A DNA stretch of 64,000 nucleotides from IMG/VR virus record IMGVR_UViG_3300020429_000529, positions 390,762 to 454,761 of that record; one strand, given 5' to 3'. A program made the translations under genes and the position numbers. The notes under the pieces were generated by a model. It had not been told where the DNA came from, searched no databases, and saw nothing but the letters and a program-made list of their open reading frames with translations. This stretch comes from a virus. Each line of letters begins with the position of its first letter. Position 1 is the first letter of the stretch. Shown here one piece after another: positions 15,192 through 64,000 of the stretch.

Positions 15192-15674
15192 ATGTCTGAT
15201 ACAGGTCATAACAAGAAATGCCCCTGCTCGATATGCGACATGGAGAAACAGGGCGTAGATCGCGCTGATGCTATCGCTGCCGTTGAAGCTCAGCGGCGAG
15301 ATATGATGAGCAAGTACGGCTGGTATGTTCAGGCTGTTGTCGTTGACGATGATGAATCGCCAACCGGGTACAATGTTCATACGCACGGCTGTGACGAATC
15401 TTGGGGACATCCTGATTTTCAGGTTGTTTTGCCGATCGATCCGAAGATCGCCCATTCGATTATCGCCAATCTTGTCGAGAGGGTCAAGGAAGGCGAAAAG
15501 TTCGCTCACGGAGATCGGGTCGAAAACATTATTGGCAACGATCTTGAAGTCATGCTCGTTGAGGCAACCGAAAATAGGCGAACCGTTCTTCGCATCATTC
15601 TGCCTGATGCAGATGGCGTACTGCCTCCGACGACAGAAACATACGCAAGTCAACTTGAAGGAACAGCCGCCTAA
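15192..15674 (+). CDS. DUF4262 family protein
   Basis: YGWYVQAV...YNVHTHGCDESWGHPDFQVVLPIDPK follows the DUF4262 pattern (YTxGL...HPELxv). AGGAG RBS. Confidence 0.5.
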   Translation: MSDTGHNKKCPCSICDMEKQGVDRADAIAAVEAQRRDMMSKYGWYVQAVVVDDDESPTGYNVHTHGCDESWGHPDFQVVLPIDPKIAHSIIANLVERVKEGEKFAHGDRVENIIGNDLEVMLVEATENRRTVLRIILPDADGVLPPTTETYASQLEGTAA

Positions 15675-52059: not shown

Positions 52060-52416
52060 ATGAACATTTCGCGCACAAGACTAAACGCCCTCATCGCTCT
52101 CGGTAAACGAGAGGCAGAGATCGGTCAGACGCCCGGTACAGGAACGAGCGACCAGTACCTCATCTTCCCGGGCAAATACAACCAGCAACTCGAATGGGCC
52201 GCTCAAGAGGGTCTCTGTCATCGAGGCATGTGCGTGTTCGAGAGGAAGATGTCTACGCTGACTGCGGACGGCATGCACATGCTCAAACCTGCTTTCAACC
52301 TGACTCCCGATGGGGTCAGCGTTGCTGTTCATGGAGAGATCGGAAAGAAAGTCTCTGCCGCCGCCAGAGACAGAACATTCGGCAAGACAAAGAAGCAAGC
52401 GGCAAAGTCCGCCTAA
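52060..52416 (+). CDS. hypothetical protein
   Basis: ORF. Confidence 0.45.
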   Translation: MNISRTRLNALIALGKREAEIGQTPGTGTSDQYLIFPGKYNQQLEWAAQEGLCHRGMCVFERKMSTLTADGMHMLKPAFNLTPDGVSVAVHGEIGKKVSAAARDRTFGKTKKQAAKSA

Positions 52417-52430
52417 TCAAGAGGAAGCGA

Positions 52431-54393
<1,963 letters not shown>

Positions 54394-54394
<1 letters not shown>

Positions 54395-55986: not shown

Positions 55987-56174
55987 CTTTCAAACAAGGT
56001 CTCATCCTCGCTCTCGGCACGCTCTGCGGATCATTTTTCGCGCATTGGATCAGCGCCCTCGCAGCCCCCTGGCTCAGCGGATTCGCCGCCCTCGCCTGCC
56101 TCGCAGCTATCGTCTTCATCATTATGAAGAGCAAGAAAGATAGCGATGATTCGGACAAGGACTTTGACAAATGA
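55983..56174 (+). CDS. hypothetical small membrane protein
   Basis: ORF. Confidence 0.4.
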   Translation: MTFKQGLILALGTLCGSFFAHWISALAAPWLSGFAALACLAAIVFIIMKSKKDSDDSDKDFDK

Positions 56175-56596
56175 AAACAACGCTTTCAATCATCCTGACC
56201 ATCGTTTTTGTTTTCGCTTGCAGTTGCGCTTCAAGCAGCCCCATGAACTCGGCAGCATCTCTCGAACGAGCCCTGGATAACCAGGAACCGCTGCTCCCCA
56301 AAAGCATACTGCTCTCCGAAGAACAGTTTGTTCAGCAGTACCTCTCTCTGGACGAGAACGAACAAGCAGTCTTTCTCCAAGACTTCATGGACCAGCATAA
56401 GCCTTTCAGAAAGCTCGCCAGAGAAATCAGAGCGCAAGCAGAAGAGGCTCACAGCCAAGGCAACCATGAGGAAGCAGAAAGGCTCCGAGAACTACTGATC
56501 CGCTGGGGGAACGAACTTCAAACCGAACAATACTCGCTTCTCACGCAAGCATACGGACAAGCCATATCCGAATACGGAGAAAGGAAGTTCGACTGA
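56171..56596 (+). CDS. putative secreted protein or lipoprotein
   Basis: Signal peptide with VFACSC. Confidence 0.45.
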   Translation: MKTTLSIILTIVFVFACSCASSSPMNSAASLERALDNQEPLLPKSILLSEEQFVQQYLSLDENEQAVFLQDFMDQHKPFRKLAREIRAQAEEAHSQGNHEEAERLRELLIRWGNELQTEQYSLLTQAYGQAISEYGERKFD

Positions 56597-57536: not shown

Positions 57537-57746
57537 ATGGCAAAGAATAGAAGAGTCGAGAAACGACGCTGCTCATCCTGCTCGGGAACAGGCAAAAAGA
57601 CCTGCTCCTTCTGCTTCGGAAAAGGCAAACGAGCCAACGGAGGAATGTTCGGACTCGGACTCATCGACGCAACGTCCCGATGCGCATACTGCTCGGGTAC
57701 AGGAAAAAGAACATGCTCCATGTGCCATGGGGCAGGAGAAAGGTAA
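57537..57746 (+). CDS. DnaJ-type CxxCxGxG zinc-finger protein (4 repeats)
   Basis: CSSCSGTG, CSFCFGKG, CAYCSGTG, CSMCHGAG. Confidence 0.6.
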   Translation: MAKNRRVEKRRCSSCSGTGKKTCSFCFGKGKRANGGMFGLGLIDATSRCAYCSGTGKRTCSMCHGAGER

Positions 57747-59116: not shown

Positions 59117-59416
59117 ATGTCCCTTCCTGCAATCTTTGGCATATCATTAGCCCTCATAACCGTCGCTGCGCTGTGCCTGGGATTGGGCTACGTCGTGAAT
59201 ATCTCCCTACGGGAGATAACATGCCGACAACGAACAGGCTACCCCAGCCTCGGAGCTATCGTCAGAGCTTACAGAAGTGTATGTTTTGATATTGATGTCT
59301 ACTACGGAGACTACGGAGACAAAAGGTTCATCAAGATGAGGAGCGAACGCAAACGACTCAGCGACCTGATAGATCAAGAAGAAGACCGACTCCGAAGAAC
59401 AAGGAAAGCAGCATGA
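59117..59416 (+). CDS. TM protein, paralog set B member 3
   Basis: N-terminal TM then RQRTGYPSLGAI. Confidence 0.45.
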   Translation: MSLPAIFGISLALITVAALCLGLGYVVNISLREITCRQRTGYPSLGAIVRAYRSVCFDIDVYYGDYGDKRFIKMRSERKRLSDLIDQEEDRLRRTRKAA

Positions 59417-59769
59417 CCAACGCAACCGCCCAACCCCAATATGCTGCCCACGAGAAGATCGATGGCTCAGGTTCCCAAGACTGCGACCTGTGCGGCTCTG
59501 AGACCGTCGTAGCCGCCTTCGAGTACGAGGACATGCATTGGGTCTCCGAAGACAGACAAGAGTCGCAGGGGACTCGTACAGCCTTCCTCTGCCAACTCTG
59601 CGGAGATAACCCGAAACTACGAGAACTCTACCTCGAAGCCAAAAGCCATGGACCAACGCAAATGAGCGACAACGAAAGAACCATCATCCAACAAGCTGCC
59701 ATCAACAATGCCTCCATGAACCTCGCACTGAATCAGATCAATGACATGTTCCTCGATCATATAACCTGA
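59413..59769 (+). CDS. hypothetical protein with CxxC pairs
   Basis: CDLCGSE ... CQLCGDN. Confidence 0.45.
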   Translation: MTNATAQPQYAAHEKIDGSGSQDCDLCGSETVVAAFEYEDMHWVSEDRQESQGTRTAFLCQLCGDNPKLRELYLEAKSHGPTQMSDNERTIIQQAAINNASMNLALNQINDMFLDHIT

Positions 59770-59776
59770 CCCGAAA

Positions 59777-60652
59777 CACTGAATCAGATACCCCAACCCC
59801 CTCTTCCACTGAATCGGGAAATGCTGCAAAAACACTGGTAAACCTTGTAGCAAATCGTCTGACACTGAATGGCAAAACGAAATCAGGTTTACCAAAACGA
59901 AAATCGATAACACTGAATGGAATGACAAATGTTGTAAGATGCTGGGAAAAGTTGGAGATTCATGGGAATCTCTCCCACTCTGCCCCACTCTGCAACACTG
60001 GTAAATGTTACGGGAAGATTTGATATGGCTCATAAGCTGGAAGACTTGCAGACAGGATTCCCTTTTCTCCATGAAGGTCAGACATGGATGAAGCTGACAG
60101 ACGGTCCTGCGACCTGTCGAGCGACTCCTATCAACGGAGAGGGGAAGGGAGTCATCCATGCTCTGCCTGCAAACGAGATGGTCGAGATGGGCATCGGTCT
60201 GGACGACCTCGAACATGCTATCGAGGAGACCTACCAGAAGTTGCTGGCTGAGGGGACTGAGGACAGCACGGTCAACGAAAAGCATACATCGTTGATGAGG
60301 TTGCTCTCGATCGGAGCGGTCATCGAGAGAGTCGTCAGCATGGCTCAGAGGATCTCGGAGAATACGGCCCATATGGGGACGGAAAGCAGGAAAGAGTAGA
60401 TACTCTGATACTGCTCGTGTGCCGCGACATCTCTGACCTGAACTGTCTCTCCGAAACCTGAAACAAAAACAACTCAGGTTTGCTTTTCACCTGCTGACCT
60501 GGAATCGGCGTCTTGTGGCACTGAATGCCGATAAGCTGGTAGGAGGCACTGAATGAGAGTACGAGGCGTATACATCCGAGGTCACAAGTATCTGCCCGAT
60601 TTGCAGGTAAACTTTCAACAGTTCGATGGCACTGAATCGCATGGCACTGAAT
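59777..60652 (+). repeat. 8 same-strand copies of the octamer CACTGAAT (plus 2 copies of ACACTGGTAAA)
   Basis: Copies start at 59777, 59807, 59853, 59910, 60519, 60547, 60630 and 60645. The last four are GGCACTGAAT; one overlaps the SD/ATG of the ATPase and two lie inside its 5' coding region. Confidence 0.7.
60025..60399 (+). CDS. hypothetical protein
   Basis: ORF inside the motif-rich region. Confidence 0.45.
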   Translation: MAHKLEDLQTGFPFLHEGQTWMKLTDGPATCRATPINGEGKGVIHALPANEMVEMGIGLDDLEHAIEETYQKLLAEGTEDSTVNEKHTSLMRLLSIGAVIERVVSMAQRISENTAHMGTESRKE

Positions 60653-61227
60653 GGGTCACATCGATCCTCGGTCCCAATGGCTCTGGCAAATCGATCATCA
60701 GCCAAGCCATTGCCTGCGCCTTCGCTGGCTCAGTACGAGAGGAGGGCGCTCCTTGCACTGTTTCGGCTGACCTGGTACGAGTAGACTTCGAAGTAGACAA
60801 CGCTGTCATCGCTGCCCAATCCTTCCGAGGGAGGTTCGACAGACATAGCGCCATCGCCGCTCGCTTCGACTCGAAAGGTAAGCATGGCGTTATGATGTAC
60901 GACCGCAATCGGCTGGCGATGGACGTACCAGGAAACTATACAGGCCTCAAGGTCATAGTGCCTATCCTTGCTGACATCCATCTCCGTTCCTTGGAGGACA
61001 GCGTTGTCGTCATCGACGACTTCGACCTGGGGTTGGATGCTTCATTGCGCGGGAAGTTTTTCAAGCACCTTCGGTCTCATCTCCGTCCTCGGCGCAACCA
61101 GTTGATTCTGACTGCGCGGGAAAAGATAGGTGAGATGTATGAGGTGGTGTTGCCTGAGGGACGGGATGTCATGGAGGACGCGATGCGGGAGGTCAGTCTG
61201 CTGGGTAAGAGGCCTGCATCTTCTTGA
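60553..61227 (+). CDS. compact ABC-type / SMC-like ATPase (AAA_21/AAA_23-like)
   Basis: Walker A ILGPNGSGKS near the N-terminus; Walker B / D-loop VVVIDDFDLGLD. AGGAGG RBS with a 6-nt spacer. Confidence 0.65.
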   Translation: MRVRGVYIRGHKYLPDLQVNFQQFDGTESHGTEWVTSILGPNGSGKSIISQAIACAFAGSVREEGAPCTVSADLVRVDFEVDNAVIAAQSFRGRFDRHSAIAARFDSKGKHGVMMYDRNRLAMDVPGNYTGLKVIVPILADIHLRSLEDSVVVIDDFDLGLDASLRGKFFKHLRSHLRPRRNQLILTAREKIGEMYEVVLPEGRDVMEDAMREVSLLGKRPASS

Positions 61228-61903
61228 TGTCATCGATGTAGGGGAGCTTGAACTCATCCTCATGACGGATGATCTTGAACGGCAATCCCCAGTTCAGTCT
61301 GAAGACGTTCTCCGCCAAGCGAGCGACTCGGTTCGAGCCGTCTTGGAACGGCTTTATGCAGCAGAGCCTCAGATTGATCTCGTAGGCCTTCTCGACGAGC
61401 GCTTCGATGTCGTCTTCGTTGAGGAGATGCGGCTGTTCTATCTTTTCCCGATTGGCATCATGGAAGTTTGCGATGTTGAGCAGGAGGTCGTAGAGGTGTT
61501 GTTTGATGGAGTAGGGGTTGGGCATCTCTGTTTCTGAGACCCAGTGTCTTGCTTCGCGCCAGCGTCCGACATCTGATGGATGTATGACGTTTTGGTCTCC
61601 CATCATGTAGCCTTGTTCGGCGACGGACTTAAGCAGGTTTTTGTGAAGTTTTTTGAGCCAGTCGAACTGGTCCATGGCTGTGTAGATTTTGACATCTGCA
61701 GCAGATGGGATCAGGTCTGGATCTGCTGCGAGCGATTTGACCAGGTTGAGGCATTTGAGTTGGCCTTCCACGTGCGGGTGGATTTTGGAACCTGACATTG
61801 TATCATCCAGGTCTTTTTTGAAGAGCGGGATTCTCTCGATTCGGGTCGAGTGGAAGGCAAAGGCAACTTGGTGGTCTCTTGATGGATTTGGGAACCTGCG
61901 CAT
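61193..61903 (-). CDS. Fic/Doc-family-like protein with degenerate motif
   Basis: CIKPFQDGSNRVARLAE against Fic HPFx(D/E)GNGRxxR. P, F, D, G, R, R are conserved but the catalytic His is Lys. Confidence 0.5.
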   Translation of the reverse strand: MRRFPNPSRDHQVAFAFHSTRIERIPLFKKDLDDTMSGSKIHPHVEGQLKCLNLVKSLAADPDLIPSAADVKIYTAMDQFDWLKKLHKNLLKSVAEQGYMMGDQNVIHPSDVGRWREARHWVSETEMPNPYSIKQHLYDLLLNIANFHDANREKIEQPHLLNEDDIEALVEKAYEINLRLCCIKPFQDGSNRVARLAENVFRLNWGLPFKIIRHEDEFKLPYIDDIKKMQASYPAD

Positions 61904-61932
61904 GGATTGTGTATCGGCAGGTAAGGGGTATC

Positions 61933-61997
61933 AAAGATAGGTGCAGAGTTCGGGTTGGTAGTCAAAGATAGGTGCGCGGGAAAATGAAGATAGGTGC
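61933..61997 (+). repeat. 3 direct repeats of AAGATAGGTGC at 25-30 bp spacing
   Basis: Copies at 61934-61944, 61965-61975 and 61987-61997. Confidence 0.6.
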
Positions 61998-62950
61998 AAT
62001 CTGGTAGTGCCTGACCGGAACCCCTTGCTGAGAGGAAGGGGACGTAGATGGCGGAGGGCGTCAGATGTCGGGATGTAGCCCTGGGGGAGAGGGCTCCTCG
62101 ACGAGGCAGACTCTTCTGAAGGGGTTGTTCCCCAGGGCGCAACCCTGACAGCCTGGCCGTAAGAAGACATCAGCCCGATGACGCCATCGAGATGCTGATG
62201 ACGTTGCTCAGGCGTCAGGATCCGGATGTCGCTGAGGGCTCGGGGTTGCACTGTTTTGCACTGTTCGCACGTGACGCATGTGCTTCAGAACGGCCTTCAG
62301 AGGCTCTGAAGACGGTTTTGGGGTCTCGTGCGGTTGAGTGTGCGCAGCGAGCCTGAGGCACTGTTTGCTCGTCGAGGTACATCGGGATCCTGAGGCGGAG
62401 GAGACGCTCCTCAAGGAGGCGGGCTGAAGGACCAAGGAGAGATGGCTCTTCGGGCTTCTTCAGGCTCCTCGGGCTGTATGTGCGGTCCTTCAGGCGACGT
62501 AAGTCGTTGGTCTTCAAGGACTTGTAGCACTGTTTGCTACTGAGAAGGCGGCCTTCAGATGCCGTACATGAACCGAATCGGGAGGTCTCTTGGTCGGGAG
62601 AATGGGACATCTCTTGGAGTATCCTGCTGGCCGACGCAGGCGATTAGGGTTTTGAGGGGTCTCAGGTTGGCTCAGGTTGGGCGCTGAAGAGTTTCGTAAG
62701 TCGTTGCTGCAGCGGGGTTTACGTCTTTCTGAGGAGCCAAGAAGAGAAAGGAGCGGGCTTCAGCCGGCTGGCCGCCGGCTCATCTCTGCTGAGATGGGTA
62801 AGATCTTGGCTCGCAAATGTGCCAGAAGAGGGCTTCTGGGGCGAATAACGGCAGTTGGCTGCTCGTTGCGGGTGATGTCTTTGGGGGCTACGATCACATC
62901 CAAGGACGGAGCGGAGGAGACATCTCCGCCGTCAAGAAGCGAGGACAGCT

Positions 62951-63643
62951 ATGACCAAGAAGACTACCGAGAAGGGCAAAGAGACGTATTTGGACCATGC
63001 TGCTGAGGCCTCAAGGCCGATTTCGCAGCGGAAGCCCGTCAGTCAGGGGAGGCAAGGCACGCTTCCTCCTCGGCGTCATCATCTCCTTCCGGATCAGCAG
63101 GATGAGCTACTGAAGCGGATGGCGGACGACGGGGGCTTCGTCAGCCCCTACAAGCGGTTCGGCGCTTACGACGGTCTCGTCATGGCTCTGGCTCGTCTGG
63201 GCGAGAATGAGAGCCACGCTCTTGGTCAAGTCTTGGGCGAGTTCGAGCGGTACATGTCTGACGAGGACTCGAAGGACGGTCGGGATCGGACGGCATGGGA
63301 CCGCTTCAGGGATAAGAAGAGTCGGAGCGAGAAGACGGGCCTCGACCACATGGGTCGTCTGAAGCAGAATGTGACGGTCCTTCAGCGGATGGGCGGCGAG
63401 CATCCTTACGCCTTGAAGTTGGCGCAGCTTGGTTGCTGCGTTGACATCATGAAGGGCGAGCGAGGGGAGTTCAGGGTTCGTCTTCGTACTGGGGTTCCTA
63501 TTGGGGACGACATCGTGCCGAAGAACGAGTTCCGCAGCAGGGATTGTCCGAGGTCTGTTATGGCCCTCCGCAGTCAGATGAGGTTTGCTGGTACGACTTC
63601 GCCGTCGAGGGGGCCGGTCAGTGACGGTTCGGGAAAAGACTAA
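62951..63643 (+). CDS. hypothetical protein
   Basis: ORF, higher GC. Confidence 0.45.
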   Translation: MTKKTTEKGKETYLDHAAEASRPISQRKPVSQGRQGTLPPRRHHLLPDQQDELLKRMADDGGFVSPYKRFGAYDGLVMALARLGENESHALGQVLGEFERYMSDEDSKDGRDRTAWDRFRDKKSRSEKTGLDHMGRLKQNVTVLQRMGGEHPYALKLAQLGCCVDIMKGERGEFRVRLRTGVPIGDDIVPKNEFRSRDCPRSVMALRSQMRFAGTTSPSRGPVSDGSGKD

Positions 63644-63775
63644 AGAGGGACGGTCGCAGGTGGGGTTCCATCGAGTATAAAGGTGTGCGGTCGAATCTCG
63701 GCTCTGCCACTGACGGCCAACGGCTGTCGGCAGAGTCGTTCGACTTACAGGCACTCTCAGATGGAGAATCCCCAA

Positions 63776-64000
63776 TGCCCCGTACCTCAACTCGACTGAG
63801 GGAAGAAACCCCCAATCTTCCCAACGACCACCTCATTCAGGACATGATCGCCAGTCTCGGCATGAACAATGACGAGATTCTCGCGATCCTCTATAGGCGA
63901 GAGCAGAACGTCGATTGCATCATCGACGGCGCTGTTCTGCATCCCGAGACCGGCAAGCCGATGAGCCGCGCCGATGCGCTGGAGTTGCTCGATCTTGACG
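63776..64000 (+). CDS. hypothetical protein, 3'-partial (runs off the window)
   Basis: MPRTSTRLREETPNLPNDHLIQDMIASLGMNNDEILAILYRR...; open to the window end. Confidence 0.45.

Follow-up and report, generated by a model that had tools for sequence, protein, structure and literature searches.

Origins of replication built on short repeated sites provide several models against which a newly found repeat array can be read. In iteron-type origins, such as mini-F ori2 (incB-repE-incC), P1 oriR (incC-repA-incA) and the lambda origin in gene O, repeats of 17–22 bp with regular helical phasing form same-orientation clusters on both sides of a gene, accompanied by an AT-rich stretch and nearby replication genes, and some of the repeats fall within coding sequence. 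DnaA boxes are short asymmetric 9-mers that form a dense array at oriC, where GC skew switches, and that also occur singly near replication-related genes in DnaA-regulated promoters. The satellite phage P4 carries octamers (TGTTCACC) in both orientations in its ori and crr, two clusters set apart from each other and close to a replication gene of helicase type; the octamers are bound by the alpha primase-helicase. Transcription-activated origins, for instance T7 phi1.1A/B or T4 oriF/oriG (a middle promoter plus an unwinding element), combine same-direction promoters with an AT-rich region and a G-rich non-template strand downstream. Hardly any replication origin of a huge phage has, to our knowledge, been mapped. 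The locus considered here lies in a 64,000-nucleotide stretch of viral DNA (IMG/VR record IMGVR_UViG_3300020429_000529, positions 390,762–454,761; henceforth the window), in which copies of an octamer box, CACTGAAT, are arrayed on one strand around the start of an ATPase gene. The preferred account, held at a little short of an even chance, is that this box region is a replication origin combined with a control region, and that the boxes are bound by a phage DNA-binding protein.

The octamer has nine exact matches in the window, all on the + strand and all within 0.93 kb (59726–60652), with none elsewhere; 2.45 were expected for the whole window, and nine were reached in none of 100 shuffles. 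The earlier note on this DNA had counted eight octamers on the same strand. The strand exclusivity was borne out, and the count rose to nine through an overlooked copy at 59726–59733, which sits in the 3′ end of an open reading frame (ORF) at 59413–59769. Elsewhere, words with one mismatch to the octamer show no enrichment (30 against 58.6 expected). When the pattern is widened to CACTG[AT][AT]T, 14 matches are obtained in 71.2 kb (the window plus 7.2 kb of downstream sequence taken from the related contig L001), of which 13 lie on the + strand inside 59726–62536 (2.8 kb), a clustering with a Poisson P of about 1e-21 to 1e-32. An equal density of the motif throughout the genome, which the earlier note gave as the observation that would undo its case, is thus not what the 71 kb available contain.

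A more general CACTG box, of which the octamer is one flavour, is nearly confined to the sense strand and comes in three flavours, two of which, CACTGAATG and TAGCACTGTTTG, form clusters; CACTGAATG and CACTGTTTG are concentrated over 59.7–62.5 kb. The distal cluster (59777–59918, + strand) holds octamers at 59777, 59807, 59863 and 59911, the four copies preceded by A or C that had been reported in the spacer 59770–60024, together with a variant box, CACTGGTAAA, at 59833. The proximal cluster (60519–60764, + strand) consists of GGCACTGAAT at 60519, 60547, 60630 and 60645 and of CACTGTTTC at 60756 within the coding sequence. Its four GGCACTGAAT copies (60519–60652) agree with the first description, including the copy at 60547 that overlaps the Shine-Dalgarno sequence and ATG of the ATPase gene (AGGAGGCACTGAATG) and the two copies 15 nt apart inside the coding sequence that encode GTESHGTEW. 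A third cluster (62249–62536, + strand), of CACTGTTT-type boxes at 62249, 62259, 62359 and 62528 (TTGTAGCACTGTTTGCTA), occupies a spacer of about 1 kb without a convincing ORF. When these four and the box at 60756, the TTT-flavour boxes of the window, are included, the array spans 59726–62536 and thereby brackets a convergent ATPase/Fic gene pair. As in an iteron origin, direct repeats of one site are present, namely nine CACTGAAT, five CACTGTT-type and two CACTGGTAAA boxes, all on the + strand. A further repeated word, AACACTGGTAAA, does occur twice as claimed, the second copy at 59994 and the first at 59831 instead of 59832.

Comparison with related loci (numbered from L001) reveals what selection has kept. 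The close strains L001–L009 carry no comparative information, because they are 100% identical over the region; elsewhere, an A/G polymorphism at box position 2 is seen among close strains. The ATPase has a single distant cluster of homologues, at 33% identity, on the syntenic contigs L010–L017, where the box reads RGCRCTGAATG. Around the ATPase gene there are two of these boxes at a distance of about 1 kb upstream, two or three more immediately before the gene, of which one overlaps the start codon, and two within its coding sequence, in another reading frame (GCA CTG AAT/ATT in L011 vs GGC ACT GAA in the window). Homologues of the Fic protein (30–67% identity) led to the lineages L027–L032, which have the same arrays, and boxes are kept in L011, L027, L028, L029, L030, L031 and L033. 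Since the boxes are kept at 33% ATPase identity and in other frames, selection acts on the nucleotides and not on the protein, which strongly supports the earlier proposal of a frame-independent function at the level of DNA or RNA. With each lineage set in the orientation of the ATPase gene, a count over 1.7 kb of upstream sequence and the initial 0.3 kb of that gene gives CACTG 7–12 times in sense against 0–2 times in antisense in seven of eight lineages; the eighth, L032 (three sense, one antisense), is the most distant of the set and uses CCACTGCGC throughout. Boxes within ORFs are often read in the frame GGC ACT GAA (Gly-Thr-Glu), as at 60630–60652 in the window; in L055 (6376–6423) GTEP is repeated four times with a 12-nt period, with boxes within the ORF, and L053 is a further case of the in-ORF box frame.

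A metagenome scan with an alignment of p230, a 230-residue protein encoded downstream of the Fic gene, gave 36 loci. In lineages at 30–35% identity the order Fic-p230-helicase-p427 is kept and no ATPase is detectable; 30–40 sense CACTG(A/T) boxes, against 3–14 in antisense, extend over about 7.7 kb upstream of p230, with nearly none downstream. The first boxes of this stretch form a tight array (TAACACTGAACTACTG) between divergent genes. L036 has an inversion of the ATPase and Fic genes, and its box region lies 5 kb downstream of p230; there the boxes, phased repeats (described below) and a G-poor flank are still found side by side, with about 900 nt of non-coding, AT-rich DNA. The cis-elements consequently travel as a unit, and the boxes are not a feature of the ATPase gene, since arrays persist where no ATPase is detectable and lie elsewhere in L036. 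A relative, L047, encodes a glycine-rich RRM-type RNA-binding protein (1078–1395) inside the box-rich domain. Independent assemblies break at or near the arrays (L005–L009, L010–L017, L028, L047, L055 and L058), in the L010 lineage at a 23-nt tandem repeat, GGCTCCGCAAATGTCAAACCATT; such breaks are likely due to the repeats and to the edge of a hypervariable upstream region.

Relatives were not found among GenBank phages, either by DNA search or by protein search with Fic or HATPase, and IMG/VR held no relatives of the ATPase or of the 124-residue protein encoded between the clusters. An IMG/VR pattern scan for two copies of GCACTGAATG returned nine loci, some with five-copy arrays (L020, L021/L024). 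These arrays lie in long intergenic regions (L020 4671–4789, − strand; L021 10003–10646, equal to L024; L025 272–311), and one copy in L025 overlaps an ATG start. They were rejected as kin, because they share no proteins with the present family and show neither CACTG strand exclusivity nor a comparable skew jump; having been retrieved with that 10-mer as the query, they are treated as unrelated. Neither the motif strings nor the clade was found in the literature and phage collections searched; in the literature, the strings matched primer sequences only.

The non-coding element that is conserved best in the region sits between the distal and proximal clusters (59959–60005, + strand); in it, TCATGGGAA is followed by repeats in 10-nt phase, CCCACTCTGC, CCCACTCTGC and AACACTGGTA (59974–60003). 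Its general pattern is ATGGGAW, then 4–5 nt, then two to six 10-nt units of GCCCCACTTTGCCCCAC or CCCCACTTTG type, and it is present in L011, L027, L030, L031, L036, L060/61/68 and L062, lineages that range from 32% to 57% GC and whose p230 identity to the window falls to about 32%. In 643 kb scanned, CCCCACTTTG-type phased repeats occur almost exclusively at the array locus. Within 1.5 kb on either side of the element, CACTG is found 63 times in sense and 10 times in antisense in eight lineages (3.0 vs 0.48 per kb), compared with 0.56 and 0.18 per kb away from it. Directly upstream of the repeats, the stretch 59838–59973 contains the lowest GC content of the window (0.36 over 100 nt, tied with 56115–56214), so that the AT-rich component of an iteron-type origin is in place, and it is a candidate DNA-unwinding region; at the equivalent place, L036 and L031 contain long non-coding stretches rich in AT. 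The phased repeat can also be read as a micro-ORF, MG(I/S/F)xPTLPH(S/I)xT (window 59959–60024; L011 about 190–245; L036 about 15280–15360; L027 about 7890–7850, − strand), and a leader peptide is possible from this reading of the sequence. A repeat acting as DNA is preferred, because L060, L062 and L068 lack a start codon and L060 and L062 have five to six units.

The + strand is rich in C and A up to the array and in G and T beyond it. GC skew in the window moves from about −0.2 over 55.7–60.0 kb to between +0.1 and +0.3, and the jump is larger on the sense strand of relatives, from −0.46 to +0.39 (L027), −0.51 to +0.45 (L029), −0.33 to +0.47 (L031), −0.19 to +0.49 (L033) and −0.15 to +0.21 (L060/68), a jump being present in L032 as well. 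In five lineages the minimum of cumulative G−C falls 640, 664, 607, 805 and 744 nt upstream of the ATPase start, inside or within a few hundred nucleotides of the distal cluster (about 59913 in the window). The genes flanking the jump share one strand on both sides, and third codon positions flip too, with a G fraction of 0.05–0.17 upstream vs 0.42 in p230 and an A fraction of 0.21–0.37 vs 0.04. The antisense Fic gene has the complementary bias, so that the + strand remains G/T-rich across it, and the upstream ORFs, mutually unrelated among lineages, have C in excess of G in all of them. The skew therefore tracks position, whatever the family of the gene or the strand that encodes it. Binned at 3 kb, skews at third codon positions trace a sawtooth, falling over about 18 kb to −0.31/−0.31, jumping to +0.13/+0.29, with TA skew reaching +0.62, and regaining the baseline within about 10 kb. 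A change of this polarity is the replication strand asymmetry expected at a bidirectional origin. The decay is local, unlike the genome-wide pattern of classical origins, and may reflect a mixture of origin-dependent and origin-independent replication or prolonged single-strandedness near the origin. In L029 (8600–10508, − strand) and L027 (8105–10525), the 2–3 kb upstream of the array are nearly free of G on the sense strand, with skews of −0.4 to −0.5, yet apparently encode Pro/Thr/Ser-rich proteins with a third-position G fraction of 0.05–0.09.

Two genes of interest follow to the right. The p230 gene (62951–63643, + strand) precedes a helicase gene in 13 related loci (by tblastn), and the core of the structure predicted for its product by AlphaFold2 gives winged-helix-like matches, all weak, TubR and ScpB being among them; p230 may be the protein that binds the boxes. 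The helicase gene (63775–64000, + strand, continuing past the window end) encodes a DnaB-like replicative helicase of AAA_25/KaiC type (PHROG 19, E 3.7e-10). The reading as an origin and control region, conserved in a clade of uncultured marine giant-phage-like elements, is put forward because direct-repeat arrays, phased repeats, an AT trough and a skew jump blind to gene orientation coincide beside a winged-helix-like protein and a helicase; of the options raised in the earlier note, the iteron or origin option accordingly gained the most new support, from the skew jump, the AT trough, the phased repeats and the helicase gene. In the mechanism proposed, the CACTGAAT boxes would be arrayed recognition sites in double-stranded DNA, with helically phased CAC(T) repeats at the centre beside the most AT-rich spot and sense-strand CACTG boxes flanking both sides. 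A phage-encoded sequence-specific protein, for which p230 is the best candidate, would load onto the boxes, open the AT-rich stretch and recruit the DnaB-like helicase. The same protein could also bind the single boxes of a third flavour, CACTGACGG, upstream of the helicase and neighbouring genes, thereby joining initiation and regulation as DnaA boxes do, and the boxes over the ATPase start codon might in addition repress the ATPase gene.

Measured against the described systems, the logic resembles that of iteron and DnaA-box origins and differs in box length, kilobase-scale strand restriction, the three flavours and the strong local asymmetry. The conserved core is 8–11 nt long, shorter than an iteron, with an irregular spacing of 12–56 nt; helical phasing (10 nt) is limited to the CCCACTCTGC-type repeats. 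Unlike in iteron origins, the gene enclosed by the clusters lacks conservation and therefore is not the initiator; p230, the candidate initiator, is 2.9 kb away and has no Rep-family assignment. Compared with DnaA boxes, the sequence is unrelated, all boxes have one orientation and no DnaA-like AAA+ gene was seen; an oriC-type origin was rejected, as TTATCCACA-like boxes are not enriched in the 64 kb (10 one-mismatch matches against 8.5 expected) and none lies within 59.7–62.5 kb. The P4 octamers differ in sequence and in their use of both orientations, and they are bound by the alpha helicase, whereas the helicase here shows no sign of such a DNA-binding domain. The T7 and T4 origins have far fewer promoter copies, and the boxes here, some of which lie inside coding sequences, are only putative promoters. 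A stronger claim, that the locus exemplifies a previously unrecognized type of origin belonging to a widespread clade of uncultured marine giant phages, with one-stranded CACT-core box arrays around phased repeats, a p230 winged-helix initiator, a DnaB-like helicase and a local sawtooth asymmetry, is doubtful at present.

The main alternative, which is unlikely, is that the boxes are promoters or start-proximal elements for phage-specific transcription, with the CACTGACGG box as the ordinary single-copy form and the AAT and TTT arrays as tandem promoters reading rightward into the replication module. Such an explanation stays in contention because that sister flavour (CCACTGACGG) precedes genes as an isolated box: single sense-strand copies, one per intergenic region, lie 30–115 nt upstream of six gene starts, namely those of the helicase, 427-residue, 222-residue and HATPase genes downstream of the array and of the RNA-ligase (12555) and RtcB (29290) genes elsewhere in the window, and orthologous copies are present in relatives. 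All boxes are on the sense strand, some lie 6–30 nt past intrinsic terminators (L030 2481–2452), and the first tight array of the wider family opens a divergent intergenic region. Arrays of this kind might even prime or activate an origin by transcription, as in T7 and T4, and the G-rich sense strand would favour R-loops. However, alignment of 97 sites gave a conserved core of 9–11 nt with no conserved positions beyond it and no partner −10/−35 element at a constant distance. The sigma-70-like or TATAAG-type −10 elements found 10–31 nt upstream of several boxes would place those boxes inside the transcript; overall, the distance from −10-like element to box varies from 4 to 31 nt. The link to an encoded ECF (extracytoplasmic function) sigma factor, which had also been suggested, is for the same reason unsupported, and a two-element promoter was rejected because conservation is confined to the core. 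Boxes also lie 12–20 nt apart, over start codons and inside coding sequences, and the AAT flavour has no copy in the remaining 68 kb, nor in the remaining 63 kb of the window. The CACTGACGG/CACTGAC flavour, with about 10 gene-proximal sites in 71 kb, does in part recur as a promoter class would. Moreover, transcription alone leaves the opposite skew of same-strand upstream genes unexplained.

It is improbable that the boxes act in RNA, with a regulator binding CACUGNNNG in 5′ leaders and over the ATPase start and with the multi-box stretches serving as operators or as a CsrA/CsrB-like sponge. The strict sense-strand restriction would suit such a role, as would the position of boxes downstream of −10-like elements and, in the window, L011 and L030, across the start codon of the ATPase gene. 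The box of the helicase gene (63708–63716, + strand, 67 nt upstream of the ATG) has equivalents 70–79 nt upstream in five other lineages, a distance of about 73 nt conserved over six lineages (67–79 nt); in L031 it is 42 nt. The structural evidence is contrary: Rfam has no match at the box region, the fold of 59760–60030 scores z = −0.83 and the boxes have no consistent place in predicted hairpins, for which reasons a structured RNA was rejected. Some boxes lie 6 nt past a terminator T-run, where upstream transcripts should have stopped, and the skew jump, AT trough and helically phased repeats would all go unexplained. Both CACTG and CAGTG are depleted in coding DNA elsewhere, relative to synonymous-codon shuffles, which would point to recognition of double-stranded DNA, but the depletion traces to a general depletion of CAC/GTG and is not specific evidence.

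A partition centromere (parC, parS or tubC-like) served by the adjacent ATPase is very improbable. The placing of two sets of short direct repeats before and across the start of an NTPase gene does recall R1 parC and pBtoxis tubC, where such repeats surround the start of the operon, and the weak fold matches of p230 include TubR and ScpB; yet the ATPase matches AAA_21, AAA_23 and SMC_N only and belongs to the ABC/SMC-head-like class and not to the ParA, ParM or TubZ class, the next downstream gene is the convergent Fic gene and not an adaptor, and arrays are kept without a detectable ATPase and are separated from the ATPase gene in L036. A pac site or genome terminus recognized by terminase is equally hard to credit: short direct repeats are arrayed beside known pac sites, such as those of P1 and SPP1, and many independent contigs end at or near the arrays, but the break points differ among same-strain assemblies (59579, 59842 and 59865 in window coordinates), breaks are expected at repeats and at a hypervariable edge, no terminase gene was seen nearby, and contigs of 498–502 kb run uninterrupted across the site.

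The window is part of a metagenomic contig of about 498.6 kb (ENA ERZ17089788 NODE_1289088) that recurs in marine samples, including those of Tara; the skew jump falls near 397 kb on this contig. Genes for GroES/GroEL, RtcB, an RNA ligase, dCMP deaminase and PRPP synthetase give it a jumbo-phage-like character, the RtcB being closest to jumbo-phage versions such as that of phiRSL1, and no structural genes were seen in the 74 kb inspected. A 594-residue protein with multiple HTH motifs is encoded at 75–1859. About 3.1 kb downstream of GroES/GroEL (52194–54394), a 69-residue ORF (57537–57746) is made of a DnaJ-type CXXCXGXG zinc-finger repeat. The 124-residue ORF (60025–60399, + strand) between the distal and proximal clusters is lineage-specific, its place in relatives being taken by unrelated ORFs or non-coding DNA, and is followed by a weak terminator-like hairpin, AAACCTGA/TCAGGTTT, then GCTTTTC (60455–60488, + strand), which was seen by eye and is negative in a consensus scan. 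A 251-residue antisense ORF (59617–60372, − strand) across the distal array and the 124-residue ORF is probably spurious, because the base composition by codon position is atypical and no gene caller predicted it in the contigs recovered. The ATPase (224 residues; 60553–61227, + strand) resembles ABC/SMC heads and, weakly, AriA, PtuA and AbiLi. Its gene overlaps by 35 nt the convergent Fic/DOC-family gene (61193–61903, − strand), which is antisense within the G/T-rich side; the pair (60553–61903) is conserved together in many lineages and may be a toxin, defence or anti-defence module at the origin-like region.

The spacer between the Fic and p230 genes carries three direct repeats, AAGATAGGTGC (61934–61997, + strand), adjoining a GCGCGGGAAAAT motif; AAAGATAGGTG is also found at the equivalent place in L030. 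In the same spacer, an indel of about 620 nt separates the close strains L010 (2487–3504) and L011 (2468–2861). A second conserved sense-strand motif, TTGCGCGAAAAAT, occurs in L028, L030, L031 and L032 and at 61972–61985 in the window, often directly past an intrinsic terminator and 4–14 nt upstream of a CACTG box (for example in L028 at +738, +1528 and +5098 relative to the ATPase), and may be a promoter or operator. A partly palindromic form of the box (GGC-ACTGAAT-GCC, TAGC-ACTGTTT-GCTA) was rejected, since by eye it fits a minority of copies. Word usage in the first 59,000 nt of the window is itself unusual: CTAG is absent against about 229 expected, TTAA, AATT, CCGG and ACGT are depleted 3–17-fold and CAC/GTG stands at 0.32 of expectation, which points to strong avoidance of restriction or to a mutation bias that depends on sequence context.

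If the locus is an origin of the proposed type, a local GC skew of up to ±0.5 that decays within a few kilobases would imply prolonged single-strandedness near the origin, which would mean initiation through R-loops or D-loops, or else a switch to origin-independent replication further out. An origin signature with a candidate initiator would help to locate origins in giant-phage genomes recovered from metagenomes and would allow replication activity to be read from ocean-metagenome coverage, and it would nominate a new initiator/helicase pair for biochemistry. The strong local strand asymmetry would likewise constitute a natural record of replication initiation in these uncultured genomes.

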